Below, in pieces: positions 23,812-53,700 of a stretch of DNA of 64,000 nt. The DNA comes from an uncultured Methanosarcinales archaeon (lineage in GTDB: Archaea > Nanobdellota > Nanobdellia > Woesearchaeales > JAHJBD01), in contig CAZHRT010000004.1 of NCBI GenBank assembly GCA_964534665.1, positions 10,956-74,955 on the forward strand, written 5' to 3'. Under the pieces are notes generated by a model, which searched no databases, was not told the DNA's origin, and was given only the letters and a program-made list of their open reading frames with translations. The first letter of the stretch is position 1. Each line of letters begins with the position of its first letter. The position numbers and the translations under genes were made by a program.

Positions 23812-23835
23812 ACTATTTCTTGAACAAGAAAACAA

Positions 23836-31258: not shown

Positions 31259-31927
31259 ATGAGATGGGTAATGTTATTTTTAGTGATAGTTGCTTTTTTG
31301 TTATATGAACCAATATCTTTTGAATTATATCTTAACAATGAGTTCTCAGGTAATGCTAAAAAATTTTCAAATAAAGTTATGGAAGGAAAAGTAACATATT
31401 ATGTTAATAATTATTTTACAGAACAAGATTTAGCACCACTATGGAATTTATTATTTTCTAAACACTATTTTTATCCTACAAATTACTTGTCTTTTAATCA
31501 AAGAAGAATACTGGTAAATAAGGTATTTTCATTAAAGCCATCAACTTTGGAACAAGCTTCTGACCAAGTGAATATTCTTAAATATGGTTTGGGTTTAAAC
31601 AACGCTTCATCGACCATACCTTTTAGCCAAACAGGCAACATAATGCTCAAAAAAAATGTTTGTTCAAGTAAATTTAAGATTAATGTAACAGATTCATGTG
31701 AAGTTAGCAATTATATGGACTTATTCTTCTTTTGTGAAAACTCTCTTAGCAGTACAGAAACCGAAATGGTAGAGGGGGCAACAGAAGGAAATTGTGTAAC
31801 ACATTGTAAAGAACATTGTTATAATCCAGCACAAGTTTATGTTAACCAAGACTGTAAAAGCATGTTTGAAAAAAAGTTAATTGACCCAAATGTTAATTTC
31901 CACTGTATATTTTTAAAATGGACCTAG
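31259..31927 (+). CDS. Hypothetical secreted/membrane-anchored Cys-containing protein (222 aa)
   Basis: N-terminal hydrophobic segment MLFLVIVAFLL and ~10 Cys in the C-terminal half. Embedded between two radical SAM genes. Confidence 0.35.
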   Translation: MRWVMLFLVIVAFLLYEPISFELYLNNEFSGNAKKFSNKVMEGKVTYYVNNYFTEQDLAPLWNLLFSKHYFYPTNYLSFNQRRILVNKVFSLKPSTLEQASDQVNILKYGLGLNNASSTIPFSQTGNIMLKKNVCSSKFKINVTDSCEVSNYMDLFFFCENSLSSTETEMVEGATEGNCVTHCKEHCYNPAQVYVNQDCKSMFEKKLIDPNVNFHCIFLKWT

Positions 31928-35071: not shown

Positions 35072-38000
35072 GTGGATGATTTAAATATGTTTAAGAGTAA
35101 AATACTACTCATTTTAATATTGGCTCTTGCCGCATATAGTGTATCTGCTGCAGAATGTAGCGAATGTGGCGCACACACCACAGCATGTGATTGCCCTTCT
35201 TTTTGTGAAAATTCTGGAGATACTAGCGGTACTTGTGGAGATATTATACGTTGTCAACCAGTTGCAGGAAGAACAATATCTGAATGTAGTTCTTTTACAG
35301 ATGGTGCAGTATGTACATCATCACCTGGCTGTTCATTTTGTTCAGGGAGCGGTACTTGTTCATCTTTAACTAGTGCAGGCAAAAATACTTGTAAAAAACA
35401 GCCAGATTGTAGTTGGGACGAAACAGATGTTGACCCAGTCAACCATTTTTGTACTGGTAGTGCAAAATCTTGCTTTGATATAGGTTTGGATCCAAGTTGT
35501 ATAGCTGGCGATTTTTGTGAATCAGATTGTAATTCAGCAGCATTATGTAGTTGGGACACATGTGACGGTGCAGTTGAATCTTGTCAAAGTAGAACATCTG
35601 AAATCGAATGTCAAATTACGGGTAGCAATTGTTTTTGGATTGGCGATAATATTGATCAGGACCAAGATATTTACACCAAAAACGATATTTGTCGAACAGG
35701 AGAAACGCTTCAAATGGATTTTTGGTTATTAGATGTTGCCGATAGGGATGGCATTTGTCCACCAACAGATTGTATTGATGAACCAGGTGATTGTGCAGGT
35801 GCAGGTTACACTGGCGAGGCACTTACATGGTGTCAAAATAATCCTTATTTGATACATCCTGGCGTTTTTGATTTTCCAAACGATGGCATTGACCAGGACT
35901 GTAATGGTGCAGATTCAACAAAAGCAATAGATTGCGATTCATCCCTTTCAGCATGTGTTTATATTCACAAATTTGATAATGATGTTTTATCAGAACACCC
36001 AGTAGATTTTTATCCTTGTTATTTACAAGATCCAACTTGTAAAAAATGTGATCGTGATTATGGTTTAACAGACCCTTGTGTCAGAACATGTTCTGGGACA
36101 GATTGTTGGAAACTAGGAAAATATAAAACTATTATAAAAAGACATTCCAAAGAAGAATTCGAGTATTCTTTTGATTTTGATAATTTAGGTGAAACTAAAT
36201 GTAATAATGCAGACTGGTATGGCTCAGATGGTGTTTGGCGTGATGCTGGTTGGTTAGGTGCTGGCGGAGATTTAAATTGTTGTGGAGATGATAGGCCCTG
36301 GGTTTATGAAGGAATAGCCTTTAGACTTTATGAAACTGCAGCAGCATCCAGAGAATCTGTTTTTAGAGTTTTTAATGACGATCTACAAGATTCTTTTTTC
36401 TTAGGCCAAAGCTCACAAGCAAATTTGGTTAATTTGGAAGCTAAGGGGTATTCATGGGAAACTTTTTTGTATGCTCCACCTTCAACAGGAACTACTGGAG
36501 ATGAAGTGTGGGCACTATATAATCCATTAAACGGCGATAGGATCTTTACTACAGATACTAATGAAAAAAATACCCTTGTAGGTGCTGGCATAGCTGCTGA
36601 CTGGCACCCAACTCAAACATTTAGGGCACTTGGTCCAACAGAATCTCCCTCTACAACTATTGCAGTACACCGTTTTTATAATCCTGATAAAGGTATTCAT
36701 TACTTTACAAAAGACGAAAGTGAAATTGTTACATTAACAGATGGTCCAGAAATTTTTACTTGCGGCTCTGACATATTTACAGCATGTGTTGATTCAAATA
36801 TTGTCAAAGATGCAGATGAAGACGAAAATGTTTGTATAGGCTGTGGCCATTATCCATTAGATGGAAATTTAGGGGGTTTAGCTTGGAATGAGGAATTAGA
36901 TTCAAATAATTGTTGCGGTAACGAAGAAACTGATTGCGGCATATCTGATGGGCCAAACCTTTGCTATATGGATGATACCTCTTCAAGATGGATTGCAGGT
37001 ACACAAGGCGAAGAAAATAGTGTGGGTACCGTAATTAATATGCCTTGTGATGATTCTGATTATACATTATTACCTAACCTAGAATGGGTTCCATGCAAAG
37101 AAAATAGTTTTATGGCCCCTTTTTCACCAACAAAATTAAGGTTCCTGATTGGAGACGTTCTACACGAATATCTTTGTAAAGATAGTGAAATTCTTGCTTG
37201 TTGTGGTCCAGATAACACAAATGAAGATTGTCTTGTTCCATTAAGCAATGCTCGAACTACAACAGATGGCCCTGTAACAATTGGCACAGATACTTTTTAT
37301 TGTACTTCTTCATTTACATGGACAACTCAACCAGATGTAGATGAAGCCTCTTGTATTGCTTCAACAAATCCTGTTACTAGCACAAATAATGTTTGGACAG
37401 GCACAAAATGTTGTGGTGATGATGGTCTTGATGATGATTACTCAGACCATTTAGGGATTGGTGCTTGTTTAAATGGTGCAGTAATACCTAATGGTGATAA
37501 AGCAGCTAATGATCTGATTGTTGAAAATGGATTATTATATGGTTGTGTTGTAGATACTTCAGATTTTCCAGATATGTCAGAAGATATCATAACTCCTTCT
37601 GATCGTTGTGAGATAATTTCCAATAATTTCTGTTCATATTCTGGGGATTGGAGCACAGAAATTTCAACCAGGGATAATCCTACTTATCGTAATAGGACAG
37701 CAACTAAGCATGAATCAATTTCTGGTGGCACAACGAGTGCTTGTTGTGAAGTTAGCGAATGTTGGGATAGTAGAACTTGCGTTTCACATGGCACAATTAT
37801 CAACCAAAATTATGCCTGTATTAATGGTGATTGGGAAGACAGAGAACTTCGTTGGAAATGGGACTTCAGTGAAAACGGTTATTGTTTAAGTAATGATCAG
37901 TGCCTTGTAGAAGATCTTGCAAGTGCAACCGACAAATGCATTGATTCAGGAGAATACATATTTGACCATTATTGTGAAGAAGGGAACTGGACATCTAGAA

Positions 38001-40987
38001 CAAAACTTTTAGCAACAACTTTATTAGACATCGCGGCCGACAAGGTTTTTGCAAATTATACTTTGTTTTGTGACACTTACGATACTGTATTAAATTATCT
38101 TGATTACGAATCATTCAATTTTCCTGTAGGAAGCCGTTTTACTAAAGATCTTGCAGTATGCTCAGACCCTAATGTGGTTGAAACTAAGTCTTGCGTTAAC
38201 AAAGTCTGTGTTATGGAATTTCCTTTAATTGAATTTGGTGAAGAAGTTGTTGTTTTTGCAACGTCCTTAAACAATATATATGAAGAAGAGGATGTCCCAC
38301 TTAGTTATTTAAACACATTCTTAAGAGCTTACCATGAAACTTATGGAGATATTGATTGTAGTTCAGCAATGGATAACGATGGATTATTCCATTCTTGTGA
38401 TGGTGCAGATGCAAGAATTTGGTGGAATAACAAACTACAAATGATCATTACTTCATCAACAGCAATAACAACTACAGATATTCCTGGTGAATTTGGGCTC
38501 GCAGGCCTTAGTTTTACACAAAAAATAGCTTTCTTTTTCTCAAACCCTTTTGAAAACATATTTAATTTTATCAAAGGCGTTTTAAACGATCCTGATCGTG
38601 ATCCTAGTTTTAATCAAAAACTTGATCTTGATCAAACAGTACAATCTGAAATTTATGGGTTTATACGAAATACTACTGAGTTTAGTAGAATTTATCTTGC
38701 AAGGGATGGCCCAAGATCCATAAGGGGGATTTCTGAAGAAATCTATGTTGATCAAGAAGACTCTGGTAAAAATAAAAATTATACTTCAATTACTTATACT
38801 TGTATTAATGAAGACGTGTGTGGCAGTGTTTCAACTTTTGATGCAAAGGCTGCTGGCGACGGGGAAAGAATCTCTTGTACAACTGACGTAACAGGAATTA
38901 ATAGTTATGTTATTTCTAGGTTCCCTTCAGGTAGAGACACTTGGCTTGATTTAACAGCAAAAACAAGGTTATCTGGCACAAGCAATACTAATACAGCAGC
39001 CCCAAACATAATTACAATAGTTTCTAATCCAGCTTTAGCCACACTTAATCCAGATCAAACAGAAGCAGAGTTTGATTTACAATTACTTGGAGAAGGGTGT
39101 GTTTGGCCATTCACATATTTGTGGGATTTAGATGACAATAGCAATTTTGAGACAACTACTGAAGATCCAGAAACCTCAACAACAATATCTGTTCCTCAAA
39201 CGCAAGAATATGACCCAATTGAAACAATCGCAAACATAAAAGCAAAAGTTTCAGATGGCACACAAGAATCAACAGTTTATAATTTAGCCTTACCAATTAA
39301 AAAACTCCCACAAAAAACTAATGCACAATGTCCAAAAATATTACCTCGGCGCGCACATTGGAGCGATACTGTTAAAGACGGAACATTTGAACAAACATGG
39401 ACCAATGGTGCATATTCACCAGAAACAAAAGAATCAATATATAATGTTGCACCTAATGAATGCCATTGGACATGTGATGACCTTTATTATCTTTCAGAAT
39501 ATGATGATCCACCAATTGAAGAAGCAGTTGAACCACCGCCAGAAGAACTTAATCCAAGACCTAAATGGGACGCTGGATGTGGGGACTCTTGTGGTGAAGG
39601 CTTATTTTGTTTAGATGGTACATGTATTCCATCTCTTAATCATATAGGCGCATGTGTTTCAGCTTCTTATCAAGGTAGCCCAGTAACTTGTAGGGACCAC
39701 AATTATGATCTTACATCAGAAATGTGTACTTTACAAGGTGAAAACTTTGATAGTGATGGAACTACTTGTGACAATTCAAATTTAGACTCAACAAATCCAG
39801 ATTTATGTTATATCCATATTGAAAACTCTGTTGATAATGAGGGTAGAATATTCTGTCCAAATGGTTGCGTCTTTAGTGACGATCCCGCAAACTTGTATGT
39901 TTCATCTTGCATACCTGATAGGGACACCATAACACCCGATGATGAACCAGAAACTTCTGCTGTTGACCCAGAAGAACCAGAGGCATGTTGCTTAGAAACA
40001 CAACATAATGAATATGGTAGGTGTGTTTCAAACAAATGTTCAAAAGAAAATATCCCTTTATATAGTGTTCCATGTGAAGGGTATAATACAGGGGTACTTA
40101 ACCATAAATTTTCTAACCAAATAGTTTATTCTTGTTTTGGTGCTGAGAAATGTTCATATAAATGTGATATTGATACTTTACTTGACCCAGCTAGCGGGGA
40201 GTGTAAACCTTTAGGTACAATTTACGAAGTTGGCGATGACGTACCAGATATAGTTTGCGATTATTTAATTAACAACCAAGTCCAATGTACTATTACTCGT
40301 CCTAATTCTTATACTTCAGAAGATGGAATAGAACTCTTTTGGAGATATTATGATTCACAAGGTAATGTTCTTGCTGATTTTTGTGGTGAATGGTCTAAAA
40401 AAGCAAGTAATGGTTGTGTTGGAAATTCAGATTCATCTTATTATGATTCCATTTATTATGATGCAACTACTTCATCTAAGACAATAACTTTTACTGCAGA
40501 TTATTCAGACCTGGCACACATTGGTTTATGGACTCGCGGCTGGGAATTTATTAGTGTAGATAATTATGAACCTTCAGGGTGGTCTAATGGGTTAGATATT
40601 AATATTATTCCCTTAATTGATTGTAGTTATTCAAGTAGTGATAATAAAGCCACTTGCCAAATAACATCTTATTCTTATGATCCAACGGATGGCATAGAAC
40701 TCTTTTGGAGGTATTATGATGCTAATGGTAATATTTTAAAAGATTTTTGTGGAAATTGGGAACCAAATATTATTGACCACCCAGATTCTAATTGTGCTGA
40801 ATTAGGCACAAATCAAAATATATTTTATAATCCTACTACCTCAGTTCGTACAATAACTTTTGAGCCATCTTTTGCCACTTATCCTAATCTTGCAAGTTTT
40901 GGTATCTGGTCAAAGGGCTGGAAAAAAGATGGTGCAGATTGGGATACAACACCTTGGTCAAAAGAAGAGCTCACAACCCTATCTTAA
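35072..40987 (+). CDS. Giant secreted Cys-rich surface protein 1 (1971 aa)
   Basis: Signal peptide MFKSKILLILILALAAYSVSA|AE, an N-terminal region with >60 Cys, repeated R(F/I)(Y/F)(N/T)...G.H(Y/F)FT..D..E modules, and duplicated DGIELFWRYYD...DFCG modules near the C-terminus. Confidence 0.8.
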   Translation: MDDLNMFKSKILLILILALAAYSVSAAECSECGAHTTACDCPSFCENSGDTSGTCGDIIRCQPVAGRTISECSSFTDGAVCTSSPGCSFCSGSGTCSSLTSAGKNTCKKQPDCSWDETDVDPVNHFCTGSAKSCFDIGLDPSCIAGDFCESDCNSAALCSWDTCDGAVESCQSRTSEIECQITGSNCFWIGDNIDQDQDIYTKNDICRTGETLQMDFWLLDVADRDGICPPTDCIDEPGDCAGAGYTGEALTWCQNNPYLIHPGVFDFPNDGIDQDCNGADSTKAIDCDSSLSACVYIHKFDNDVLSEHPVDFYPCYLQDPTCKKCDRDYGLTDPCVRTCSGTDCWKLGKYKTIIKRHSKEEFEYSFDFDNLGETKCNNADWYGSDGVWRDAGWLGAGGDLNCCGDDRPWVYEGIAFRLYETAAASRESVFRVFNDDLQDSFFLGQSSQANLVNLEAKGYSWETFLYAPPSTGTTGDEVWALYNPLNGDRIFTTDTNEKNTLVGAGIAADWHPTQTFRALGPTESPSTTIAVHRFYNPDKGIHYFTKDESEIVTLTDGPEIFTCGSDIFTACVDSNIVKDADEDENVCIGCGHYPLDGNLGGLAWNEELDSNNCCGNEETDCGISDGPNLCYMDDTSSRWIAGTQGEENSVGTVINMPCDDSDYTLLPNLEWVPCKENSFMAPFSPTKLRFLIGDVLHEYLCKDSEILACCGPDNTNEDCLVPLSNARTTTDGPVTIGTDTFYCTSSFTWTTQPDVDEASCIASTNPVTSTNNVWTGTKCCGDDGLDDDYSDHLGIGACLNGAVIPNGDKAANDLIVENGLLYGCVVDTSDFPDMSEDIITPSDRCEIISNNFCSYSGDWSTEISTRDNPTYRNRTATKHESISGGTTSACCEVSECWDSRTCVSHGTIINQNYACINGDWEDRELRWKWDFSENGYCLSNDQCLVEDLASATDKCIDSGEYIFDHYCEEGNWTSRTKLLATTLLDIAADKVFANYTLFCDTYDTVLNYLDYESFNFPVGSRFTKDLAVCSDPNVVETKSCVNKVCVMEFPLIEFGEEVVVFATSLNNIYEEEDVPLSYLNTFLRAYHETYGDIDCSSAMDNDGLFHSCDGADARIWWNNKLQMIITSSTAITTTDIPGEFGLAGLSFTQKIAFFFSNPFENIFNFIKGVLNDPDRDPSFNQKLDLDQTVQSEIYGFIRNTTEFSRIYLARDGPRSIRGISEEIYVDQEDSGKNKNYTSITYTCINEDVCGSVSTFDAKAAGDGERISCTTDVTGINSYVISRFPSGRDTWLDLTAKTRLSGTSNTNTAAPNIITIVSNPALATLNPDQTEAEFDLQLLGEGCVWPFTYLWDLDDNSNFETTTEDPETSTTISVPQTQEYDPIETIANIKAKVSDGTQESTVYNLALPIKKLPQKTNAQCPKILPRRAHWSDTVKDGTFEQTWTNGAYSPETKESIYNVAPNECHWTCDDLYYLSEYDDPPIEEAVEPPPEELNPRPKWDAGCGDSCGEGLFCLDGTCIPSLNHIGACVSASYQGSPVTCRDHNYDLTSEMCTLQGENFDSDGTTCDNSNLDSTNPDLCYIHIENSVDNEGRIFCPNGCVFSDDPANLYVSSCIPDRDTITPDDEPETSAVDPEEPEACCLETQHNEYGRCVSNKCSKENIPLYSVPCEGYNTGVLNHKFSNQIVYSCFGAEKCSYKCDIDTLLDPASGECKPLGTIYEVGDDVPDIVCDYLINNQVQCTITRPNSYTSEDGIELFWRYYDSQGNVLADFCGEWSKKASNGCVGNSDSSYYDSIYYDATTSSKTITFTADYSDLAHIGLWTRGWEFISVDNYEPSGWSNGLDINIIPLIDCSYSSSDNKATCQITSYSYDPTDGIELFWRYYDANGNILKDFCGNWEPNIIDHPDSNCAELGTNQNIFYNPTTSVRTITFEPSFATYPNLASFGIWSKGWKKDGADWDTTPWSKEELTTLS

Positions 40988-41088: not shown

Positions 41089-42711
41089 ATGGGTAGAAAA
41101 TCACAAATCACAATATTCTTAATTTTATTTATGGTATTATTAATCCTCTTTGGCTTTTTGTTTTTTGTACGTTCTCAAGTTACTGAAGCAGGAATCGAAG
41201 AAAAAGTTGAAAAAGCATTCAAAGATTTCCTACAAAGAACTTCCTTGTCTGTTTATGTACAAGAATGTCTTGAACTAACTGCTAAGGACGCGATTGTTTT
41301 GGCAGGAATTCAGGGAGGGATATTGTATGACTTACCAGGTTTACCCACATTTACAGATTATAATGGCCCTTACATTATTGGTGGTGAAAGGAATATCCCT
41401 TTTGATTACCAAGGAACAATTTATCCGTTAAGATTAGCTTTGTTACGTCCAAGAAATATTGGCCCACTTAATCATAATAATTATGTTTCAATTCCAGACT
41501 ATCCTTATTCTGGCGCATTACTAAACAAATCAATAATCCCTGATGTTGAAATGCTATTTAATTCTGATTCTGGAACAACTATCCAATTTCCAGCCCTTTG
41601 CGACAATAGAAACCAATCATCAAATTTTTATGGTGTTGTGGGTGCAGGATTTTCATGTGAAGATTCAGATTATAAATTAATTGAAAATACTCAAAACTAT
41701 CTTGAAAAAGAGATCTCTAATAAAATTCAAACATGTACCGATTTTCAGATATTTAAATCAGAACTAGGGTACAATATTACCGAAGGCAATCCCAAAGTTG
41801 ATGTTTTGTTTGGCGAAGAGGACGTTATAGTTCTACTCGGTTACCCTTTAATCATCACATTCAAAGGTAATCCTCCGTTAACCAAAGTTACAAATTTTAG
41901 TATAGACTTACCAGTTAGGTTTAAGAAAATGTATCATCTTGCAAAACATACTGTAAGGCGGGATTCCAGAGATATTTTTTATAATATCACCAATGTAATA
42001 GAACTTAATGATTGCTGTGTTTTAAATACAACAAGTCAAAACAATGAAAGAAACAACTGCACAGTTTCATGCTCACACCCAGGAATGGTAATAAACAAAA
42101 TACCTGACTATTGCCAAAACCGTGCTTCACAACCTTTTTGTAATATAACTGGAAATTTTACAGACATATTAAACATAACTGACAATCATTCTCTGATTAA
42201 AAATAAACCCCTTAGTTTATTTATAGCAATTGAAAATCGTCGACCTGCACTAGATTATATAAGTGCTACAGTAAATCAAAGCTTCCCTTATTATACATAT
42301 CTTGAAGAAAACTATGGTCCCAGTTTTGTTCCTGTTAATTTATATAATAAAACAACTGATCCTTTAAATACTGGGGATCAGATTCAAGTTTATGCTGGCG
42401 ATGAAATTCTGATTTTACCAATTGGCATAGATCCGGATGAAGACAATTTAAGTTACAAATACCATGGTTGGAAATCTAATAGGAATGTTCCCACAGGTTT
42501 TTGCTCAGGATATGGTCCTCAAGCTGGTGCAACGAACTTTTGGGAAACATCAAGAAATTATACTCTTGGTTTTAATACAACATCCCAATTAAGAAAAGAT
42601 GCAAAGATTATCACTATTCCAGCAGATGTTGATCCACATTGTATAATGATTAATGTATCTGATAATGAAGGATTAATTGATTATCAAGTAATTCATATTC
42701 TTGTTAAGTAA
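41089..42711 (+). CDS. Type-II-anchored extracellular protein rich in N-glycosylation sequons (540 aa)
   Basis: N-terminal TM IFLILFMVLLILFGFLFFV and ~17 N-x-S/T sequons (NKS, NQS, NIT x4, NFS, NTT x2, NCT, NFT, NHS, NKT, NLS, NYT, NVS ...). Confidence 0.55.
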   Translation: MGRKSQITIFLILFMVLLILFGFLFFVRSQVTEAGIEEKVEKAFKDFLQRTSLSVYVQECLELTAKDAIVLAGIQGGILYDLPGLPTFTDYNGPYIIGGERNIPFDYQGTIYPLRLALLRPRNIGPLNHNNYVSIPDYPYSGALLNKSIIPDVEMLFNSDSGTTIQFPALCDNRNQSSNFYGVVGAGFSCEDSDYKLIENTQNYLEKEISNKIQTCTDFQIFKSELGYNITEGNPKVDVLFGEEDVIVLLGYPLIITFKGNPPLTKVTNFSIDLPVRFKKMYHLAKHTVRRDSRDIFYNITNVIELNDCCVLNTTSQNNERNNCTVSCSHPGMVINKIPDYCQNRASQPFCNITGNFTDILNITDNHSLIKNKPLSLFIAIENRRPALDYISATVNQSFPYYTYLEENYGPSFVPVNLYNKTTDPLNTGDQIQVYAGDEILILPIGIDPDEDNLSYKYHGWKSNRNVPTGFCSGYGPQAGATNFWETSRNYTLGFNTTSQLRKDAKIITIPADVDPHCIMINVSDNEGLIDYQVIHILVK

Positions 42712-42936
42712 TACTTAACTTTTCTTCCATTTATTACTGAGTATGTAGTTATCTTATCTCTACTTATTAATTAATACCTCTGCTTATTAACTATTACTAA
42801 ATAATGTATCTACATACTAAGTAATTTTACTGTTTTAACTCTTAAAAATCAAAACATTTATATAAAATACATATGAAAGAATACTTTATATTACTTTTTC
42901 AATAAAAGTATGTAATCGTATGAAAAAGGGGCTTTA

Positions 42937-43080
42937 ATGAAAGAACGTATCACAATTACCTTAGATAAAGAACTTCTAGACTGGTTAGATAAAAAAATCG
43001 ACGATAAAGTATTTGCAAATCGTTCTCATGGCTTTGAGTTCTTATTAAAAAGGAAAATGGAGGACGAAAATGAAAGTTAA
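42937..43080 (+). CDS. Ribbon-helix-helix (CopG/Arc/MetJ-type) DNA-binding protein, 47 aa; below the ORF-track cutoff
   Basis: MKERITITLDKELLDWLDKKIDDKVFANRSHGFEFLLKRK is a beta-strand/helix/helix pattern typical of RHH. Purine-rich stretch AAAAAGGGG 6 nt upstream. The 3' end overlaps the ATG of the 2567-aa gene by 11 nt. Confidence 0.6.
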   Translation: MKERITITLDKELLDWLDKKIDDKVFANRSHGFEFLLKRKMEDENES

Positions 43081-46000
43081 ATTGTTCATATTCCTTGGTT
43101 TATTATTAGTACTATCTAGTTTCGTAGTTGCACAAGTACCCACCTTAGGTTATTGTCTAAATCCTGCAATTAATGGACAAAATCCTGAAGGCAGATACTT
43201 AAATTTAGAAGAACACTTTTGTAAAATTGATGCAGTTACAGTTGAAGAATGTTGTTCACCCACATTTATCTTATATGGGCAACCCGGTTTTCCTACTGAT
43301 GTAACTGATTGTGAGGATAATTATTTTGATACAGTTTTAGCTGATTTACCAGATGATATTGAAGCTAATTGTGATCTTGGCTGTTGTTTTGAACCAGGAA
43401 ATCAAGACCCACCTTTTTGCACTGAAAGAAAACAAGGTATATGTCAAGCTTTAGATCCAGGTAATGAATTTATGACTGGTTTTGGACCAGCAGAAGTCGG
43501 TATCGGTGACGCGTGCTATAAAAAAGATCCAACAACAAACATTGTAACTGCCTTTGATAATAAATGTAGTTATGCAGGTGCTGAATCATGTTCAGATTAT
43601 ACTAATGATGGTAAAACAGTATGTAGACAATCAAGATGTAATTGGTGTGATGTAACAAATAGTTGCGGTTCAACTTGTTCAGACTGTCTTGACAAACCAC
43701 TTAGTGACGATTTTCTTTGCACTGAATCACAAATCACATGTAGGGAATCAGAACTAAATAATCAACCAGCATGTACAGCTGCAGATTGTAAATGGTCTGT
43801 AAATAATTGCGATAAATCTTGTCGTCCAGGCTATACTGATCCAGATAATAACGGGGAATGTGACTTGTCTATTGATTGTAGAACTTTTGATGATGACGAA
43901 CAAACTTGTTTAGATGCAACCACTATTTCAGGTACTAACGCAGGTTGTTTATGGACCATAACTGGAACAGACTCAGGAAGCTGCAGTTTTGAATGTTTAT
44001 CAACCCAATATGTAGACGATGGGAATAGGGTATGTGAAGAATCAAACCTTTGTACTGATGGGGGATTTGTTTGTGCTGATGCTTGCCTTACTGTATCTGG
44101 ACATCAAGCGACTTTAGACTCTCAATGTACAACTACAGGATATGAATGTTGCGAAGAAGCTTCACCTCTCCCGCAAGGCTGTTGTGAATTTAGTTGGCAA
44201 TGTAGCGCAGATATTAATGGAGGCACAAGAATATTAAAAGATTTTAATAGTTGTCATTACGATTCAACAGACGAAGACACAGTATGGCCATGCACCCAAG
44301 AATGTTTCCAAGAATCATGTGCAAATGATTTTCCAATAAATAGCCCAAACAATGAACGTGCATTATCTGCTGGACAAACACATTGTTGGTGCGGTACTCA
44401 AGCAGTACCATTATCATCTACAGATTATTGTTGTGATGGATCAACACAATCTGAACAATGTGGCGAACGAGGTTCTGTTCGAGGAACAGTAATCAATGCA
44501 ACAGGCGATTTAGAAGAAAATGTTAATATTCTTATATTAAATACAAATAATCAAAAAGTTGGCGAAACAATAACTGATGCATCTGGAAATTTCTTTGTTG
44601 AAGGCCTACCTTATAGTTCTAATGTTGAATACATTATTTTAGCAACAAAAGGTCAATACCAAGATCTTAGACACCCGGTAATATTTACAGTAATAGATAT
44701 GACTAACATTGAACTTACCCTTATTTTAAAAGATGTTGGTGATTGTTATTCACAAAACCCACCAGCACCAAACAATTTTGATAGTTCCCCTATAAAGGGT
44801 GAGAAAAAAGTTAAACTCACATGGGATTATAATTATAATCCAGAATTTGCTGATTGTGCTGGACTGATTAATGCAATCTTTTTATACAAACAAGTTGGTG
44901 ACGGATTTGAATATATTATTCTTCCTCCTGAAACAACAGAATATATTGATGATGGGCGACACTTTGGTGAACTAAATTGGGGCAGTCTTAATGAGGAAGG
45001 CGAACCAGAATATTTTCATCAAACTTATGATTATCAGATTAAAGCACATTACATCACAGGGGTTATGAGTTCAGAAGAAACATCTCATTTTGAAATGGGT
45101 GATGAAATCTGTGAAAACATTTATGCAGATGAAGAGTTTTGTTGTTATGGTAGTGACCAATATTGTATACCAGATGGTCAAGAAACACGAATGAGGCGTA
45201 ATTGTGATGAAAACAATAAAATCTCAGCAGATGTTAATGCATTAACCCATATACAGAACATTGATGGGACAGATGTAACTTCTTCTTGTCCTCCAACCTA
45301 TCAATGTAATGGCCCAAATACTCTTGGTGAAACAAATTGTTTTAAAGATGTTAACTGTGAAGCTTTAGGCAACCCATTTGGTGTGTATTATGATCAATTA
45401 TCTTGTTATGGTATAGCTAACATATTTGAAAAACCATTTAACTATTGTTATTACGATGAAAGCTTAACAACAATAGATTCATGTCAATCTTGTACTTCAA
45501 CAACTTCTTGTTTTGATTATAAATCTGAATCAGCATGTGTTGCAGATTCGTGTGATGCAAGCGGATCTTATTTAGGCCCAGGAAATTGCCAATGGCAATC
45601 AACTTTTGATTCATTAGGCGAAGGATTTTGTTATGATGAAGATTATCAAGGAACAGATTATTGTAGTTTATGTACTGATACAGGCACAATTTTCAATAAT
45701 AATGATTGCAGCCAAAATGTTTGTTCAAAGTTAGGTAGTTGTCATGCAACTGAATTTAATTCTTGTAGTGCATGTCCAGAACAACCAGACTGTGAAATCT
45801 TTGAAACATCAACAGCATGTGAAAATGCAAATGGTCTGGATCAATCATTTGAAACAGATAATGGAGATTATTCAACATGTTATATTGATGTTGATCAAAC
45901 CAAACCAATACCTACTAATCTCATAGCGAGCGACGATGCATGCAATGTTGGCAAGTGTCAGTGGGATACGAATAACGGAGAATGTATAAAAGATTCTGAT

Positions 46001-49000
46001 GTCAGCGGTTTTGATGATTGTTCTAATCTTCAAGATGAATCAAGAATTAATTGTTTAGCAGACAACAAACCAGCATTCACTAGACTAGCTTTAAGTCAAC
46101 CAATAATAAATTCTGAAGGTGGTGTGGTTACATTTAATGCAGACGGTCCAGATGCAAGCACATTACAAGTTTGCATAGGCGATGATCTTTGTTGTCCTAG
46201 TGAGAACTTAAACTTCGAATCAGAAGAAACAACTGCATTAACTACTGTAACAATCAATTCAGAATCTGAAACAAATACTGGTGGAACCATTAAAACAAGG
46301 GAAGATACAGTTATACACCCAGTTGTTTTCTATTCAAAAGATACACGTAAAAATCTTGAACAAGTAAGAGAATCTTACACTTATATTGATGTAGTAGCAC
46401 CAATACCAAATTATAGATTTATACACTCTAATGATTTAACCCACAATTATTTAGAAATGATTGTAACTTCTGATGAATATTTGGATTGTTCTTATGAATT
46501 AGAAAATCAAGAACCACCTCAAATTTCTGAAGATTGGTTAACAGGCCTAAGTAGAGAATTTAAGATAATTTTCCAAGATCCAGGAGATGGAATATATGTG
46601 TTTAATATTACTTGCTATGATGATGTAGAAAATCTTGGCTGGGTATCAGCTCAAACAGAAGTTGATTGGACACAAAATCTTGAAGGCATTAGTGTTACTG
46701 GTCAATCAGTTGGAGGGGAACAAACATATACAACTGATAATGAAATTACTGATAGAATCTTTAATGATAATTCAGTTACTTTCTCATTTACAACAACAGA
46801 CCCAGCAATATGCAATATCCAGAATGGGGTTAATGCACCTAATTGTGAATCATCTGCAGGATGTAATGACTTACAATCAGAAGTTGAAGCGATACCAATA
46901 ACTTCCCAAGATGCAGGACTTGGGACTTATAGTTATGAAACAACAATTAACAATTTAATAAGCGGGACATATGTTATTGGCATAATCTGCGATATGCAAA
47001 ACAGTGCAGAAGAGGATACTGGTGGCATAAGTTTTGCTATAGATACTGTTGGCCCAATAACAACTGCACTTGATGAAAATGGAGAACCTTTTGACTTCTC
47101 ACCAACAAAATGGTATCCAAATGGTGTTAAATTATCTTTAAGTTGTCAAGATGTTTCTTCAGATCCAGCAGCAACAGACCCAAGAGAATATGGTTGCAAA
47201 AATATCTATTACTTTAGAGACACACCTGATGAAAACACTTGTCCAAATAGCTTTTACGAAGACCCTGATTGTGATTGGTTACCTTATAATGGCCAATTTA
47301 CTCTTTTAGATAATTCACAACTTACACAAACACATTATTTGACTTATTATTCAGACGATAACGGGAACAACAAAGAATCAAGAGCAGCTTACGGTTCAGC
47401 TAACGCTAATATTTTGATGCCTATCCAGATAGATTACAGTATGCCTAGTGTCGAGATATTTGAGACAAATGTTTTGGACCCTACCAATGCAGGCATTAAA
47501 AAAGACGGCATATATTATACTAGATTTGACACAACAGCTTTCATAGATGGTAGAGCAATTGATTTATCTGGTAGTGAAACAATATCTGAAGTAAAAATTA
47601 TTGTAACTAATGGTGAAGACACAACAGCATACGATTCAACAGTAAGTCCACAAACAGAAGGCCAAACAACATATTCATTTACACAAACAATTAATATTGA
47701 ACCTGGATTAAACACTGTTTTAGCAATTGCTAAAGATGGGGCAGGTAACCCTGTATCTTTAGAAGAAAATACTGATCTTGATTATGTTGATGGTATTACT
47801 ATAAACAAAGACAAATCTCCACCTGTTTCAGAACAAATAGATATCAAAGAGGTTACAACTGCTGGAGACATAAAAATAGATGATTTATGTTCAACAGCAG
47901 ATTGTGGAAATGCAGAATATGGAAATAATCTTAAATTTGAATGGACAATCTCTGATGCAGGTGTTGGACTTAAGGAAGATAGTCTTTGGGTAACATCAAC
48001 ATGTTATGAAGGGGATTGTATGAATTGTGTTGATACAATATGTAATCCAACGCAAATTACTTTGCCGCTCGAAGATGAATCTAATACTGGCACATTTAAG
48101 GCTATTTATGACACATCAATTAACCCACCTTTAGAAATTGGAAACTATTCATCATATTTTAAAGCAGATGACTTATTGTTAAATCAGATTACACAATTGG
48201 TACATTTTGGAATTGAAGACAATCTGGCCCCAGATATCTTTATAAAATCAAAAACCGAGTCAAGCGAATTTACCTATCCAATAGAAGTAGACGCAAATCC
48301 TAAAACTGTTTACATACCTGAAATTAATATTACAGGTTATACTGATCCTGAAACAGAAGTTGTAATTAGAGTTTGGGATAATCAAAACGAACTTGGCACA
48401 TTGGACGCTAGGGGGACAAGCAATAGTGTAGTTAACCCAGTTTCAGGCTTAGTAGATTTATCAATTAGTAATTTTTATGGGCAAGCACCAACATCTTTGA
48501 TACAAGGCGAATTACCTATTGAAGGAGAATTTACTCTTTATTTTGATGGTGTTGATTATGTAGATACTATTGGTCCAAAAATACAAGTTGGTCAACATAT
48601 TGAATTTAAAGATGCATCTACAGAGGGCGGAATAGTAAGATTTGAAGTTCCAAGATATGAAGTTACAAGTGTTTCTCGAGTAGGAACTTTGTGTGATATT
48701 AATTTTCCTAATTGTGCTACTAGAGTTCAATTTAATCCACCATTAAGAAGTTTTGAGATGTCAAATGGTTGGACAGCAACATTTTATCCAGAAGATGGCG
48801 AAACACCAACTGGTTGGTTTGATATCCAAGTTGATTTACACCCAGACCCTGGACAATATCAACCAAACAAACTTGAAATTGCAGCAATCGACAGTCACGG
48901 CAATCCAGATTATGCATATGGTGGTACAGGGCCTAATGATAAACTAGAAATAGAATATGTATCAGACTCAATAGCAGGTATCACATTAAATTTACCAAAT

Positions 49001-50773
49001 GAAAAATATAATGGTGGTTTAGACAACGAAGTTATATTAGAAAGACAAGCTAATTTTACAATTAAAGTAACAACCGATTGGGCATCTAGTTGTACTATAA
49101 GCCATACAGATGATTCTGTAGCGGACACAATTGTCAGTGCACCAATGACTAATACTTCACCAGAAAAAACAACCCATACATTCCAACCAGATTGTTCATT
49201 AGGTTTCTGCAATTTAGGGGGATTCAACATACATCACAATTATCAAATTACTTGTGCTGCAGACGAACCAGGAATTTTAGACGATAATCTTGATTTATGT
49301 TTTGTTATGGTTAATAATACTAGAACATTAAGTGGAACAGAATATAATCCAATACCACAAGCCATTTGTTTAGGCAATTCATGTAGCGCAACAATAACCA
49401 AATGTACAGACACTGCTGGTGCAGATATTGAAGTAACTACTTGTTCAACATGTAGTCCTGAAGATTCAGATCCTGATTGCATATGTGCATCAAACTGTCA
49501 AAATGCAGGCGACATCAAGGGCTGTGGTGACTTAATAACTGAAAAACCACCATTAAATCTAATTGCTAGAACTGATAATTTACAATATCTTGGAAGTTCT
49601 TTGATTTATCCTCCTGCAAATGTATATGGTTCTGTATTAGAAATAAGTGGTATTACAGAAGCAAATTCAGTTGTAAATATTGTTGTTAGAGATTCAGCAG
49701 GAGTTTTACAATCTGGTTCAGGTGGTTATAATACTAATGCTGCAGGAATATCAAGTAAATTTGCAACTGTTGGAATAATAACTGATTATACCGATTTAAA
49801 TTATCCTGTTAAAGGTGAACAAGAAGTTTATTTAGCTGGTCAAGGAATATTTGATTTATTACCTTCAAATCCAGACCTTGCTTCCAACGAAATATATATA
49901 GAATTTACCAACAATAATGATAGGACAGTATACGAAGTTGAAAGGTATAGAGTTACTTTTAAAGATAGATATGAAGACCTAGCAACAATAATAACTCTTG
50001 ATAAAGAATTAGTTAACGATCAACTCTCAGATGGCGGATCTGCAGAGTTCTATAATGAAAAACATCCTGAAGGCTGGTTTAATAAAACAATTCCTTTAGT
50101 GTCTGGATTAAACAATCTAGAGATTAGAACAACGGCACCAAATGGCATATTCTATGATCATTATTATAGTACTGCTAAAGGTTATACTTCAGATAATTAT
50201 CTGCCAATTAATTCTCTACCTGGGGAAAGTGTTAAGATTTATATCTCTTCACCAGGAATATTCAATAACAACTATGTTTCATACGATCCAGGGTTTACAA
50301 TAACTGCAACAACAACCTACCCTTCAGTTTGTAAGATAAACCATACTAAAGATACAGTTGCTGACGATTTTGAAGTTGTTATGTCTCCAGATGAAAGTTC
50401 AGAAACCCACACATTTACAATTTCTGATTCCTTGTGTAATAATAACACAGATTCTCCTGGGAAATATTGTACTGTTGGTGGATATCAAATCTTCAATAAT
50501 TATAACATAACTTGTGATCCAATTTATGAAGGTATTGAATCCAATTATACAGATATTTGTGTAACTGTTGATAGTATTGCATTAGGTAATGATGATGAAG
50601 GTGGTTTAGGCAATTCATGTGATGCATTTACCCCATTATGTGCAGAAATTACTAATGGTCCAAATTCTTGTTTTACTGGACAAACACCAGGCCCAACCAC
50701 CCCAACTACTCCAACCACCCCAACTACTCCAACCACCCCACCTACTGGGTCACAAGGTACAGGAGGAATTTAA
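43070..50773 (+). CDS. Giant secreted Cys-rich surface protein 2 (2567 aa) with C-terminal Thr-Pro linker
   Basis: Signal peptide MKVKLFIFLGLLLVLSSFVVA|QV, a Cys-dense N-terminal ~450 aa, many Ig-like modules (...SC.I.HT.D.VAD...THTF...), PEGWF module, and a (TTP)n tail (TPGPTTPTTPTTPTTPTTPPTG). Confidence 0.8.
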   Translation: MKVKLFIFLGLLLVLSSFVVAQVPTLGYCLNPAINGQNPEGRYLNLEEHFCKIDAVTVEECCSPTFILYGQPGFPTDVTDCEDNYFDTVLADLPDDIEANCDLGCCFEPGNQDPPFCTERKQGICQALDPGNEFMTGFGPAEVGIGDACYKKDPTTNIVTAFDNKCSYAGAESCSDYTNDGKTVCRQSRCNWCDVTNSCGSTCSDCLDKPLSDDFLCTESQITCRESELNNQPACTAADCKWSVNNCDKSCRPGYTDPDNNGECDLSIDCRTFDDDEQTCLDATTISGTNAGCLWTITGTDSGSCSFECLSTQYVDDGNRVCEESNLCTDGGFVCADACLTVSGHQATLDSQCTTTGYECCEEASPLPQGCCEFSWQCSADINGGTRILKDFNSCHYDSTDEDTVWPCTQECFQESCANDFPINSPNNERALSAGQTHCWCGTQAVPLSSTDYCCDGSTQSEQCGERGSVRGTVINATGDLEENVNILILNTNNQKVGETITDASGNFFVEGLPYSSNVEYIILATKGQYQDLRHPVIFTVIDMTNIELTLILKDVGDCYSQNPPAPNNFDSSPIKGEKKVKLTWDYNYNPEFADCAGLINAIFLYKQVGDGFEYIILPPETTEYIDDGRHFGELNWGSLNEEGEPEYFHQTYDYQIKAHYITGVMSSEETSHFEMGDEICENIYADEEFCCYGSDQYCIPDGQETRMRRNCDENNKISADVNALTHIQNIDGTDVTSSCPPTYQCNGPNTLGETNCFKDVNCEALGNPFGVYYDQLSCYGIANIFEKPFNYCYYDESLTTIDSCQSCTSTTSCFDYKSESACVADSCDASGSYLGPGNCQWQSTFDSLGEGFCYDEDYQGTDYCSLCTDTGTIFNNNDCSQNVCSKLGSCHATEFNSCSACPEQPDCEIFETSTACENANGLDQSFETDNGDYSTCYIDVDQTKPIPTNLIASDDACNVGKCQWDTNNGECIKDSDVSGFDDCSNLQDESRINCLADNKPAFTRLALSQPIINSEGGVVTFNADGPDASTLQVCIGDDLCCPSENLNFESEETTALTTVTINSESETNTGGTIKTREDTVIHPVVFYSKDTRKNLEQVRESYTYIDVVAPIPNYRFIHSNDLTHNYLEMIVTSDEYLDCSYELENQEPPQISEDWLTGLSREFKIIFQDPGDGIYVFNITCYDDVENLGWVSAQTEVDWTQNLEGISVTGQSVGGEQTYTTDNEITDRIFNDNSVTFSFTTTDPAICNIQNGVNAPNCESSAGCNDLQSEVEAIPITSQDAGLGTYSYETTINNLISGTYVIGIICDMQNSAEEDTGGISFAIDTVGPITTALDENGEPFDFSPTKWYPNGVKLSLSCQDVSSDPAATDPREYGCKNIYYFRDTPDENTCPNSFYEDPDCDWLPYNGQFTLLDNSQLTQTHYLTYYSDDNGNNKESRAAYGSANANILMPIQIDYSMPSVEIFETNVLDPTNAGIKKDGIYYTRFDTTAFIDGRAIDLSGSETISEVKIIVTNGEDTTAYDSTVSPQTEGQTTYSFTQTINIEPGLNTVLAIAKDGAGNPVSLEENTDLDYVDGITINKDKSPPVSEQIDIKEVTTAGDIKIDDLCSTADCGNAEYGNNLKFEWTISDAGVGLKEDSLWVTSTCYEGDCMNCVDTICNPTQITLPLEDESNTGTFKAIYDTSINPPLEIGNYSSYFKADDLLLNQITQLVHFGIEDNLAPDIFIKSKTESSEFTYPIEVDANPKTVYIPEINITGYTDPETEVVIRVWDNQNELGTLDARGTSNSVVNPVSGLVDLSISNFYGQAPTSLIQGELPIEGEFTLYFDGVDYVDTIGPKIQVGQHIEFKDASTEGGIVRFEVPRYEVTSVSRVGTLCDINFPNCATRVQFNPPLRSFEMSNGWTATFYPEDGETPTGWFDIQVDLHPDPGQYQPNKLEIAAIDSHGNPDYAYGGTGPNDKLEIEYVSDSIAGITLNLPNEKYNGGLDNEVILERQANFTIKVTTDWASSCTISHTDDSVADTIVSAPMTNTSPEKTTHTFQPDCSLGFCNLGGFNIHHNYQITCAADEPGILDDNLDLCFVMVNNTRTLSGTEYNPIPQAICLGNSCSATITKCTDTAGADIEVTTCSTCSPEDSDPDCICASNCQNAGDIKGCGDLITEKPPLNLIARTDNLQYLGSSLIYPPANVYGSVLEISGITEANSVVNIVVRDSAGVLQSGSGGYNTNAAGISSKFATVGIITDYTDLNYPVKGEQEVYLAGQGIFDLLPSNPDLASNEIYIEFTNNNDRTVYEVERYRVTFKDRYEDLATIITLDKELVNDQLSDGGSAEFYNEKHPEGWFNKTIPLVSGLNNLEIRTTAPNGIFYDHYYSTAKGYTSDNYLPINSLPGESVKIYISSPGIFNNNYVSYDPGFTITATTTYPSVCKINHTKDTVADDFEVVMSPDESSETHTFTISDSLCNNNTDSPGKYCTVGGYQIFNNYNITCDPIYEGIESNYTDICVTVDSIALGNDDEGGLGNSCDAFTPLCAEITNGPNSCFTGQTPGPTTPTTPTTPTTPTTPPTGSQGTGGI

Positions 50774-53700
50774 TGAATAATCTGAACAAAATTTGGATCA
50801 GCATTTTAGTTTTGATTAGTTTGGTAACTACTGTAAATGCTGGTAGGGCTTATTGTTCAGATACAGAATGTCAACAAGTTTGGTTTGATGGATCATATGC
50901 AACTTTAAATGATTCAACACCATCACCCTGGACAAGATTTTATAATGGTGCAACGCCTGTTACTAACCTTGTACAAAACGCCGAACTAACAGTTATCAAT
51001 TACAGGGGGAGTGAAACCATTGCATTACCTTTTGGGGGATTTAATTACCACCACTATTCAGGTTCTTTAAATGCAGATGACCTTTCTTTACATAACTATA
51101 CAATAAAAAATGAAAATCCCTTAGATACTGGAAAATATTTGTTTCATGCAGAACTACAAAGCCCCACAGGCAGGGTACAAACATACGAACTTGGATTTAA
51201 TATTGACGTAACAAAACCAGCAATAACTTCTATTAAAATCAACGATGATTCTTATACTAGCGGCAACAAAGAAGTCGCAATTGACCAACCAATTACAATT
51301 GAGATAACTGCTAATGATAATGATGGCGAAGTTGATATCGCAACAGGCGTACAAGGAATAAATATAACAGAAGGCGCAACAACAATTAATCTTACTAATA
51401 CCACTCCTGCAAAAACAACCTTCACATACACTTTTCCTGCAAACTATTATTCTTCATTAGGTACACACACTTTTACTATCTTAGTTTATGACGAAGTTCT
51501 TAATGTTAATGATGGTCAAACATTTACTTTAGAACTTACTGCAGCAGCACCTATACCCGCAGATATCATTAATATTCCTAGCCCAAGTTATACTAATTTA
51601 AATTCCTTACCTATAAAAGGCACTGCACAACTTGAAGTTGATGTAAATATCAGATCATTATATCTTGAAGGTGGGCAATTACTTTCTACTACTGTTAATC
51701 CTGTAACAGTCCCAATTACACATATTTCAGAGTCGCTTGGAACAGAATTAGTTGTTGACCAACTTGATACAACAACTATTAGAGTTAGTAAAGATACAGC
51801 AGATCAAGTTTTAACATGGTTAACTGAGTTATCTGGTAATGAAAATTTATACATGGAAATTCCTAATCATGATTTAGGTAATAAAGATAGATATCTTGTA
51901 CTTTTTTCAAGACCTGTGACTTCAGAAATTGAAGGGCATTACAACCAAATTACAATACAACAAGATCTAGTTGCTCAACTATCTCCTGGAACCGGAATGG
52001 CTTTCTATAACGAACCAAAACCAGAGGGCTGGTTTGAAACATCAATTCCTTTAGCAATAAATAAATTAAATACTTTAAAGATATCTACATCTAAATTTGG
52101 TGCAGAAACATTCCTTGATGATATCCAAATTATACACGATAGCATTTTACCAAAACAATCACACGAACCATCAAAAACAGACAGCATCACTCCAACAATA
52201 ATTGTTAAGCTTGATGGAACCGGAACCCCAATAAATCAAGACGAAGTTACTTTATCAATAGAAACATTAGGTGTAAACCAACCTATATCTGCTTTTAATT
52301 TGAATTGTAATATTGAAAGCCAACCAAATAATTGTACACTAACTTATCAATTAACAACAACCAGAGGGGCATTCCATAATATAACTGTTAATGCAAATGA
52401 TAGCGCAGGTAATAGGATGGACACATTAACTTGGGAGATAGAAGTAATAGACGAACAAGATGTTACTGCTAAATTTGATATTACTGGTGCAACAACAATA
52501 CCTGGAATACTAAACACCAACTTTACAACAGATAACGCTCCAGAATTTAACTTTGTTTTTTCACAAGAAGTTGAGATTGTATCTGCTGTTGCAACATTTA
52601 ATGAAGATGCACCAGTCATACCACCAATACCAACCCTACCAAATCCAGGTACACTTATTGAATCTAACTTTGTATTCACACCAGATACCACATTTACACA
52701 AGGCAGTTATCAAATTACTGTAACATACAAAATTAGACACGAAGGAACTTCCTTATCAGCAGAATCAAAAACATTTGATTTTGTAGTTGACTTAAATCCT
52801 CCAGTGTTTGACTTAACAAAAACAACAGAACTTTCTGGGACCATAGAAAAGAACGCAGACATTAATATTAGCGCTATTGTAAATGATATCTCTCGAGTTA
52901 ATAGTGTAATAGCAACAATAAACAGTAAAGATTACGATTTACACCCATCAAAAGAATCTAATAATCATACATTAACCATCAAAGAATTTGCAGAAGACCT
53001 AACTTTAGGTACACCTTACACATTAACACTAACTGCAACTGATTATTTTGGTAAAACTAAATCTGAAACAATGACTTTTACTTTAGAAGATCAACAACCC
53101 CCAATTATTAACAAATTAAGTCCCATAAATGTAAATACTGATAATCCAACTATTGTTATAACAACAAACGAAGAAGCTAGTTGTGTGATGACATTTGGGG
53201 CAGCACCACTTCAAACTAGCGACCCAGGAACTTCAACAAGCTATGGTTATGAACATACATTTACACTGTCTGGCCTCATTTTAGGTGAACCAAATACTCC
53301 TTCATTCACATGTACAGACGATTCTTTTAATCCAACAACTGAAGGAGATTTTTCTTATACTTATTCAACAGAAAACACCGAATTAACTATTACTTCGAGT
53401 AATGGTGAAGGTACAGCCCCTGTTTCAATAACCACTTTACAAGATGTAGGGGAAGAAGAAAACATAGTTTCAACCTTAACTGTATCTACAAGCCAAGTAG
53501 AAACTCAATGTTATTATCTTGTTCAAGCTAATCAACCTCTTGAAGCAGATTTTACGTCAGAAAACATAATCAATTCAGGTTTTGCAACAACTCATTCATT
53601 AACAATTAATTATGATGATTTAACTAGTGGCATTGAAGGCACACAATACAATTATTGGTTTTTATGTAAAGACAGATCAGAAACATATGTTGAAGATACT

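Follow-up and report, generated by a model that had tools for sequence, protein, structure and literature searches.

Ribbon-helix-helix (RHH) proteins act on DNA as dimers, which read the major groove through a two-stranded ribbon, and the binding of neighboring dimers to short repeats is cooperative, as in Arc, MetJ, CopG, and omega. The genes of CopG, Arc/Mnt, MetJ, and omega are the first genes of the operons that they repress, and their dimers occupy short promoter repeats cooperatively. Here, we analyze a 47-aa RHH protein encoded in a 64,000-nt stretch of DNA, hereafter the window (positions 10,956 to 74,955 of contig CAZHRT010000004.1, assembly GCA_964534665.1, recorded as an uncultured Methanosarcinales archaeon and placed by GTDB in the Woesearchaeales). 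Its gene directly precedes that of a 2567-aa giant secreted protein. A previous reading of the letters only (the sequence-only reading) had presented it as a dedicated regulator, or antitoxin-like module, of a giant adhesin. Our results suggest that this gene would more aptly be called a copy of a shared leader cassette, and that its product would bind RTATGTA repeats in its own promoter and probably repress its own operon.

CopG of plasmid pMV158 is 45 aa long and its N-terminal MKKRLTITL aligns with MKERITITL of the window's protein. CopG, Arc/Mnt, MetJ, and omega are of plasmid, phage, or bacterial origin, whereas the family described here is chromosomal, archaeal, and lineage-wide. Unlike those systems, this family is associated with direct repeats in a strict 10-bp register and is found before several envelope operons per genome.

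Among characterized proteins, the best sequence match is NikR of E. coli (structures 1q5v and 2hzv), whose residues R3, T5, and T7 align with R4, T6, and T8 of the window's protein. These three NikR residues reportedly contact bases in the structure of the NikR–DNA complex. The operator of enterobacterial NikR is GTATGA-N16-TCATAC, with the half-site consensus GTATGAT (PMC7055735, PMC545781). The half-site GTATGA is close to the GTATGTA motif that we found upstream of the RHH family, and the second repeat of the window's candidate operator is GTATGA itself. The two systems differ in other respects: NikR is about 133 aa long and carries a C-terminal ACT-like domain for nickel binding and tetramerization, whereas the window's protein ends at residue 47; the NikR operator consists of inverted half-sites separated by 16 nt, whereas the candidate sites of the RHH family are direct repeats at 10-bp spacing; and no nickel-related genes are found near the window's RHH gene. 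The protein scored 29.6 and 29.0 bits against two NCBIfam NikR models whose cut-offs are 175 and 83, matching model positions 1–45 only. We rejected its assignment as a true NikR on the missing metal-binding domain, the different operator geometry, and the score of 29.6 against 175 bits.

The nearest archaeal functional analog, likened here by description, is CdrS of Haloferax and Halobacterium, a small RHH protein of the CopG/Arc/MetJ type that leads a non-toxin gene. The cdrS gene lies 3 nt upstream of ftsZ2 and is co-transcribed with it, and CdrS recognizes a specific DNA motif close to promoters and bound 18 chromosomal sites (PMC8406309). The RHH gene of the window is likewise directly upstream of its partner and co-oriented with it. 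The partner differs, being ftsZ2 for CdrS and a giant secreted protein here, and no FtsZ-like partner was seen downstream among those inspected, which were not scanned with Pfam. Whereas CdrS binds 18 sites around the chromosome, the motif described below is confined to RHH promoters in the sampled regions and the RHH family is multi-copy.

Results

Identification of the RHH Gene and Its Family

The open reading frame (ORF) was located exactly by the sequence-only reading: it starts with the ATG at 42937, ends with the TAA at 43078–43080, and encodes the 47-aa product MKERITITLDKELLDWLDKKIDDKVFANRSHGFEFLLKRKMEDENES. An in-frame stop codon at 42913–42915 is followed by no start codon before 42937, so that the N-terminus is unambiguous. 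Among 5.8 billion proteins searched, 380 of about 45–64 aa match this peptide with 70–100% identity. Relative to 73 homologous genes, the differences at codon positions 1, 2, and 3 amount to 815, 324, and 1603, respectively, which indicates a translated sequence constrained by purifying selection. This ORF is a genuine gene, far beyond a chance ORF. The identical protein was read on 23 contigs, which come from several sources, and the index places it in 33 collection blocks. The gene had been called unannotated, which is accurate for an ORF track with a 60-aa cutoff; public calls do exist, since JGI labels the protein [quoted passage not shown] and NCBI labels homologs from Woesearchaeota and Nanoarchaeota "ribbon-helix-helix domain-containing protein".

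The RHH fold proposed from the sequence was borne out by several comparisons. The predicted secondary structure comprises a strand (residues 2–9) and two helices (residues 11–22 and 29–46), with a short acidic tail, EDENES. The AlphaFold2 model, built from an alignment of 29 sequences, has a mean confidence (pLDDT) of 89 and presents the beta-alpha-alpha topology of ∼45 residues, with residues 1–10 extended and the same two helices. When this model was compared to the PDB with Foldseek, the top matches were RHH proteins: ParD2 (TM score 0.85; root-mean-square deviation 1.0 Å), followed by NikR of H. pylori. The NCBIfam NikR N-terminal region covers the whole peptide (E = 6.8e-7), and the profile of the family matched E. 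coli NikR (1q5v) in the PDB with E = 5.7e-4, CopG being a weak match; one homolog has a precomputed match to PF01402. The fold of the model thus identifies a genuine RHH protein, with sequence matches that range from borderline to positive, and its nearest relative is the DNA-binding domain at the N-terminus of NikR.

We then estimated the extent of the family. An exhaustive search with a hidden Markov model (HMM) yielded 686 cluster representatives at E ≤ 0.001, including 73 at E ≤ 1e-10. Among the matches listed (150 of the 686 representatives), nearly all are 40–100 aa long, which indicates that the family consists of free-standing RHH domains. All sequences of the family alignment share the residues K2, R4, I5, T6, T8, and D10 and the loop FANRSHG; K2, R4, T6, and T8 occupy alternating positions of the strand. 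No further member was found within the window using tblastn and the family HMM on six-frame ORFs of at least 25 aa.

Relatives were collected by scanning one genome per GTDB species. This yielded 160 stretches, corresponding to ∼160 species-level genomes, and 80 loci were retrieved, almost all of them labeled as Woesearchaeota, Nanoarchaeota, or Pacearchaeota. After removal of redundancy, 88 RHH-led units remained. Many TPA records of metagenome-assembled genomes titled "uncultured Methanosarcinales archaeon" (five listed loci, and others), as well as one record titled "Aminicenantes bacterium", carry RHH/giant-gene loci of the Woesearchaeota type. These titles probably represent taxonomic mislabels or mis-binned contigs.

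A Phased Motif Is Found Upstream of RHH Genes

We searched for motifs in the upstream regions (200 nt each) of 84 non-redundant RHH units, using 229 other upstream regions of the same loci as controls. The 8-mer AGTATGTA, counted on either strand, was found in 53 of the 84 RHH regions and in a single control (1/229; P = 1e-36; Fisher test). For comparison, first-order Markov shuffles of the RHH regions contained it 2.1 times on average and 8 times at most. The shorter GTATGTA was found in 57/84 RHH regions and 3/229 controls. The presence of the motif also varied with the DNA-reading strand: units with the strand K-x-R-[IV]-T-[IV]-T possess it in ∼84% of cases, and none of the three most distant homologs, which are of Methanomassiliicoccales type and have other strands, does (0/3).

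The copies of the motif are regularly arranged. Forward copies peak 10–60 nt upstream of the start codon and are followed, at a distance of exactly 10 bp, by a second copy, which yields the consensus a-GTATGTA-nnn-RTATGTA. Indeed, pairs of RTATG on the same strand are spaced by 10 bp (69 pairs), 20 bp (23 pairs), 30 bp (10 pairs), or 40 bp (3 pairs), with almost none in between, and this phasing is absent from the control upstream regions. The tandem form RTATGTAnnnRTATG has 64 copies in the 1.21 Mb of loci, and 57 of these precede an RHH gene on the same strand by at most 250 nt; the other seven are within ∼360 nt of one. Thus, in the sampled loci, the motif is enriched, phased by 10 bp, and exclusively tied to RHH genes.

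These repeats have a typical position relative to the predicted promoter. A TATA box, TTTAWATA, was found in 63 of the 84 RHH upstream regions, usually after an A-rich stretch; its median position is −74 relative to the start codon. A reverse copy of the motif, TACATAC, often follows the TATA box by 3–4 nt, with the tandem copies 2–50 nt further downstream. Measured from the start of the TATA box, the most frequent offset of the reverse copy is +12 (nine loci); +11 was observed in two loci.

The 225-nt spacer upstream of the window's RHH gene, 42712–42936, presents the same elements (table 1). The sequence-only reading had singled out this region for its repeats, and it does hold candidate operator copies, at 42740, at 42811, and at the two sites closer to the gene. 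Three of the six copies of AGTATGTA in the window are located within this spacer; the total of six against 2.9 expected is by itself not significant. We regarded the copy at 35308, which falls within the 1971-aa ORF, as a chance occurrence. Each arm of the distal inverted repeat carries ATTACTnAGTATGTAG, with AGTATGTA at 42740–42747 on the forward strand and at 42811–42818 on the reverse strand, and the repeat surrounds two 20-nt tandem repeats (42755–42794). This module may represent a distal operator or the remnant of a second promoter unit; second units composed of a TATA box and the motif are also found in tandem upstream in three other loci. The position of the predicted promoter would place the transcription start site near 42887. 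A second TATA-like string, TTTATATT, is a possible alternative promoter; it is not conserved in the other loci inspected.

The RHH Gene Heads a Predicted Operon

The ORF of the 2567-aa protein starts with the ATG at 43070, which produces the 11-nt overlap with the end of the RHH gene that had been reported (ATGAAAGTTAA). This start codon is credible because the product begins with a clear signal peptide, MKVKLFIFLGLLLVLSSFVVAQ. At the next junction, the ATG at 50773 overlaps the preceding TAA by 1 nt (TAATG) and is preceded by GGAGG at 50762–50766 with a 6-nt spacer. Since the segment 50762–50775 reproduces the GGAGG-N6-ATG arrangement of the first junction, a single coupling device could be used across the operon. 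The earlier proposal of co-transcription and translational coupling is supported in its first part and likely in its second: the overlaps and ribosome-binding sites suggest that the RHH, 2567-aa, and 4917-aa genes are co-transcribed and that each giant gene is probably translated in coupling with the cistron before it. Strings resembling AAAGRGG were also seen, by eye and without scoring, upstream of RHH homologs.

This organization is widespread in the family. The stop codon of the last RHH copy overlaps the start codon of the next gene in 66 of the 88 units, most commonly by 4, 8, or 11 nt. Among the 73 close-coupled units, 44 have a next gene of 1000 aa or more (genes truncated by the contig end included), compared with 57 of 802 control ORFs; the product of the next gene starts with an N-terminal hydrophobic segment in 50 of these 73 units and in 230 of the 802 controls. 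We distinguished four classes of partners: secreted, Cys-rich proteins of 1800 to >3300 aa; proteins of 800–1600 aa with an N-terminal anchor followed by an "IGFAG"-like motif, whose genes usually come after two or three RHH copies in tandem; ATPases of ATP-binding cassette (ABC) transporters of 228–250 aa; and a beta-CASP nuclease. At least five RHH copies were found in one metagenome-assembled genome, on two contigs.

The neighborhood of the window is itself conserved. The order of the 1971-aa (DUF5648), 540-aa, RHH, 2567-aa, and 4917-aa genes is recognizable in at least 14 other species, in which the giant proteins are only 22–30% identical to those of the window and the closest RHH copies are 70–83% identical. 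The sequence-only reading would have been undermined by an RHH gene that was lost where the giant gene persisted; we observed the opposite, and homologs of the 2567-aa protein (22–30% identity) lie directly downstream of RHH genes in at least 14 other species. Homologs of the 540-aa protein (25–36% identity) are immediately upstream of RHH in 13 other species-level loci (14 hits, two of which were counted as one place).

Table 1. Features of the Window around the RHH Gene, with Predicted Elements Marked as Such
Feature	Position	Strand	Remarks
1971-aa DUF5648-containing protein	35072–40987	+	First of the five-gene neighborhood; related segment upstream in 7 loci
540-aa membrane-anchored protein	41089–42711	+	No Pfam match; syntenic; promoter-bearing spacer separates it from the RHH cassette
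Distal module, 25-nt imperfect inverted repeat	42733–42825		Arms 42733–42757 and 42801–42825; 84% complementary
Predicted archaeal promoter	42851–42864	+	A-rich AAAACA resembling a TFB recognition element (BRE), and TATA box TTTATATA (42857–42864); supported by TTTAWATA conservation
Reverse-oriented motif copy, TACATAT on the + strand	42868–42874	−	3 nt past the TATA box; +11 from the TATA start
Second TATA-like string, TTTATATT	42885–42892	+	14 nt upstream of the proximal operator; from sequence only
Proximal candidate operator, AGTATGTA-ATC-GTATGA	42907–42923	+	Two direct repeats in 10-bp register
Shine-Dalgarno-like AAGGGG for the RHH gene	42926–42931	+	Purine-rich; 5 nt before the RHH ATG; from sequence
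RHH gene, stand-alone, 47 aa	42937–43080	+	ORF with profile, structure, and codon-position evidence
Shine-Dalgarno GGAGG for the 2567-aa gene	43059–43063	+	Within the end of the RHH coding sequence; 6 nt before ATG 43070
2567-aa giant protein, second operon gene	43070–50773	+	Secreted, Cys-rich; signal peptide, CarboxypepD_reg-like domain, PT-rich C-terminus
Second giant secreted protein, third operon gene	50773–64000	+	Runs off the window; 4917 aa on longer contigs; Glucodextran_B domain

Discussion

A Model of Autorepression and Its Alternatives

Taken together, we consider it probable, with reasonable though not strong confidence, that the RHH gene is a portable, autoregulated, and likely autorepressing leader-cassette gene that heads a three-gene operon and whose product binds RTATGTA repeats. 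A single predicted promoter would drive the RHH, 2567-aa, and 4917-aa genes. RHH dimers would bind cooperatively to the repeats, which are one helical turn (10 bp) apart, and this register fits RHH binding since adjacent dimers of this fold cooperate on short repeats. Dimers bound between the TATA box and the start codon would hinder either the recruitment of RNA polymerase or its escape from the promoter, and the protein would thereby repress its own operon and cap a transcript of ∼22 kb that encodes ∼7500 residues of costly secreted protein. Archaeal repressors typically bind between the TATA box and the start codon, and we favor repression as the sign of the regulation because the candidate sites occupy this interval. 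Negative feedback is suggested because RHH is the first cistron and the downstream start codons are overlapped and have strong Shine-Dalgarno sequences, so that the output of RHH should track that of the operon.

The promoter, the operator, and the RHH gene would form a portable cassette that is placed before other envelope operons of Woesearchaeota and Nanoarchaeota. The term "dedicated", used in the sequence-only reading, does not fit these observations: the family is multi-copy, with two or three tandem copies in many loci and at least five in one genome, and the same DNA-reading residues and motif precede genes of ABC ATPases, of the beta-CASP nuclease, and of membrane proteins of 800–1600 aa. 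Paralogs should cross-regulate each other because they share the reading head and the operator.

Several points weigh against this model. All of its regulatory claims are computational. The AlphaFold2 model is a monomer and cannot show the dimeric ribbon, the E-values of the Foldseek matches are non-significant (which is explained by the tiny size of the domain, 47 residues), and the single sequence scores 17.2 bits against Pfam RHH_1 (E = 0.005), below the gathering score of 20.5. The protein has no sensor domain. The exact GTATGTA is missing from 27 of the 84 upstream regions, and RTATGTA from 17. The loci are centered on RHH genes, so that the motif was sampled only within ∼10 kb of them. 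The likeness to the E. coli NikR half-site may be partly coincidental, because NikR half-sites vary between lineages (GTGTTAC in delta-proteobacteria). Finally, a TATA-like string, TTATTAAA, is located within the RHH gene at 43043–43050 and could possibly serve as an internal promoter for the giant gene.

Several alternatives would account for part of the same data. The same protein and sites could act in activation or in DNA architecture, for example by wrapping the promoter DNA through the distal and proximal sites. The inverted pair at 42740 and 42811 is indeed upstream of the TATA box, many loci contain extra upstream copies of the motif, and the centers of the window's sites are 70, 40, and 10 bp apart, that is, whole helical turns. 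We nevertheless regard this role as unlikely: it is the interval from the TATA box to the start codon that contains the best-conserved sites, which in many loci begin 2–20 nt past the TATA box. It is also conceivable, but rather improbable, that the GTATGTA arrays are bound by another factor, or constitute a lineage-specific promoter element, with the RHH gene merely co-located. Motif and gene are always found together, and such an association cannot distinguish the binder from a passenger. Against this explanation, the motif is exclusive to RHH-led units (a single one of the other 229 upstream regions contains it), a 10-bp phasing is what cooperative RHH dimers typically show, the half-site is similar to that of NikR, the closest characterized head, and head and motif co-vary. 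We infer from these sequence patterns that the window's protein itself would bind the motif.

The antitoxin-like role raised in the sequence-only reading, in which the protein would be a type II antitoxin within an addiction or defense element, appears very improbable. RHH-type antitoxins (ParD, RelB, and RHH-MazE) do share with it the fold and the position as a small, upstream, overlapping gene; its best structural neighbors are ParD antitoxins, and it has a weak match to the NCBIfam RHH-type MazE model (E = 2.5e-4; 21 bits against a cutoff of 65). Yet the gene downstream never encodes a small toxin but a giant secreted protein, an ABC ATPase, or a beta-CASP nuclease, the upstream neighbor in the window is a 540-aa membrane protein, and in place of a C-terminal toxin-binding extension there is only an acidic tail of 7 residues. 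The synteny is moreover chromosomal, non-mobile, and conserved across species. The family is also almost absent from viral contigs: a scan of 2.9 million of them returned only three weak partial matches, on which we dropped a viral or mobile origin as well. The comparison with phase-variable surface genes fared no better, and a switch operating by slipped-strand or invertible leader DNA is equally hard to credit. The imperfect 25-nt inverted repeat around 43 nt at 42733–42825 and an A7 run at 42991–42997 within the RHH coding sequence could be taken as its signature, but the segment between the arms is not promoter-sized and the arms themselves are operator-motif copies, A7 runs are unremarkable at a GC-content of ∼29%, and there is no adjacent recombinase gene. 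Consistently, we observed neither a simple-sequence tract nor an invertible segment, and the 381 nt from 42700 to 43080 are 100% identical in six independent assemblies from different samples.

Other Observations in the Window and Related Loci

The cassette is not limited to giant genes, because it also leads the genes of ABC ATPases, in 13 of the listed loci, and the genes of beta-CASP/metallo-beta-lactamase nucleases of 416–419 aa, followed by a P-type ATPase, in four places (one of them represented by two loci). Tandem sets of two or three RHH copies precede the 800–1600-aa proteins in 11 listed loci, and in others. The anchor of these proteins ends in a conserved motif, K-x-[FY]-[IT]-G-[FL]-[AV]-G, possibly a processing or sorting signal. 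In the window, the four large genes between 35072 and 64000 take up ∼29 kb of a genome that is expected to be very small, and the neighbors retained across species are 22–36% identical. The evidence on the giant proteins consists only of signal peptides, the CarboxypepD_reg-like and Glucodextran_B domains, a high cysteine content, and a PT-rich tail; their description as adhesins is speculation.

The window is part of an archaeal chromosome: it encodes MCM, Cdc6/Orc1, and both subunits of PolD. The reverse-strand genes of Cdc6/Orc1 (22600–23835), the small subunit of PolD (21069–22610), and the large subunit of PolD (17639–21085) adjoin a 294-nt AT-rich spacer at 23835–24129. This region is a plausible replication origin; the search for origin-type repeats in it returned AT-rich palindromes only, without clear repeats of the origin-recognition-box type. 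No match came from scanning the entire window with Rfam (gathering thresholds) or for tRNAs. Just upstream of the giant-gene cluster, we observed two radical-SAM genes (28768–30066, with a Fer4_12 domain, and 31918–33177) and a gene for a 616-aa NHL-repeat beta-propeller protein on the reverse strand (33125–34978). A related locus contains radical-SAM and HxsD-like genes in the matching position. These genes hint at a peptide-modification system near the surface genes.

Implications for Cell-Surface Regulation

We found no literature on this RHH family, on its archaeal motif, or on regulators of DPANN giant genes, although the searchable literature is incomplete. The superfamily of the fold was already known, and what is new is a candidate operator for this family. 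The family also presents a NikR-type DNA-reading head as a free-standing module, with a similar half-site and a different site geometry. The hypothesis is testable: the protein is 47 aa long and can be chemically synthesized, the core operator is 17 bp long, and an autorepression loop is predicted.

More tentatively, and short of being probable, the cassette may be a lineage-specific leader element that has been copied several times per genome before the largest envelope operons, those of giant Cys-rich secreted proteins, of "IGFAG"-anchored proteins of 1–1.6 thousand aa, and of ABC exporters, and that would exert a pooled negative feedback on the investment in the cell surface. The giant secreted proteins, which presumably serve in contact with hosts, are encoded by some of the most conspicuous and most poorly understood genes of DPANN archaea; the cell surface is the interface that these reduced archaea presumably use in contacting other cells. 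Because the cassette marks envelope operons across ∼160 species-level genomes, it could aid the annotation of surface-related "dark matter" genes. If the proposal holds, this pooled cassette would be the first proposed regulator of the giant surface genes of DPANN archaea.

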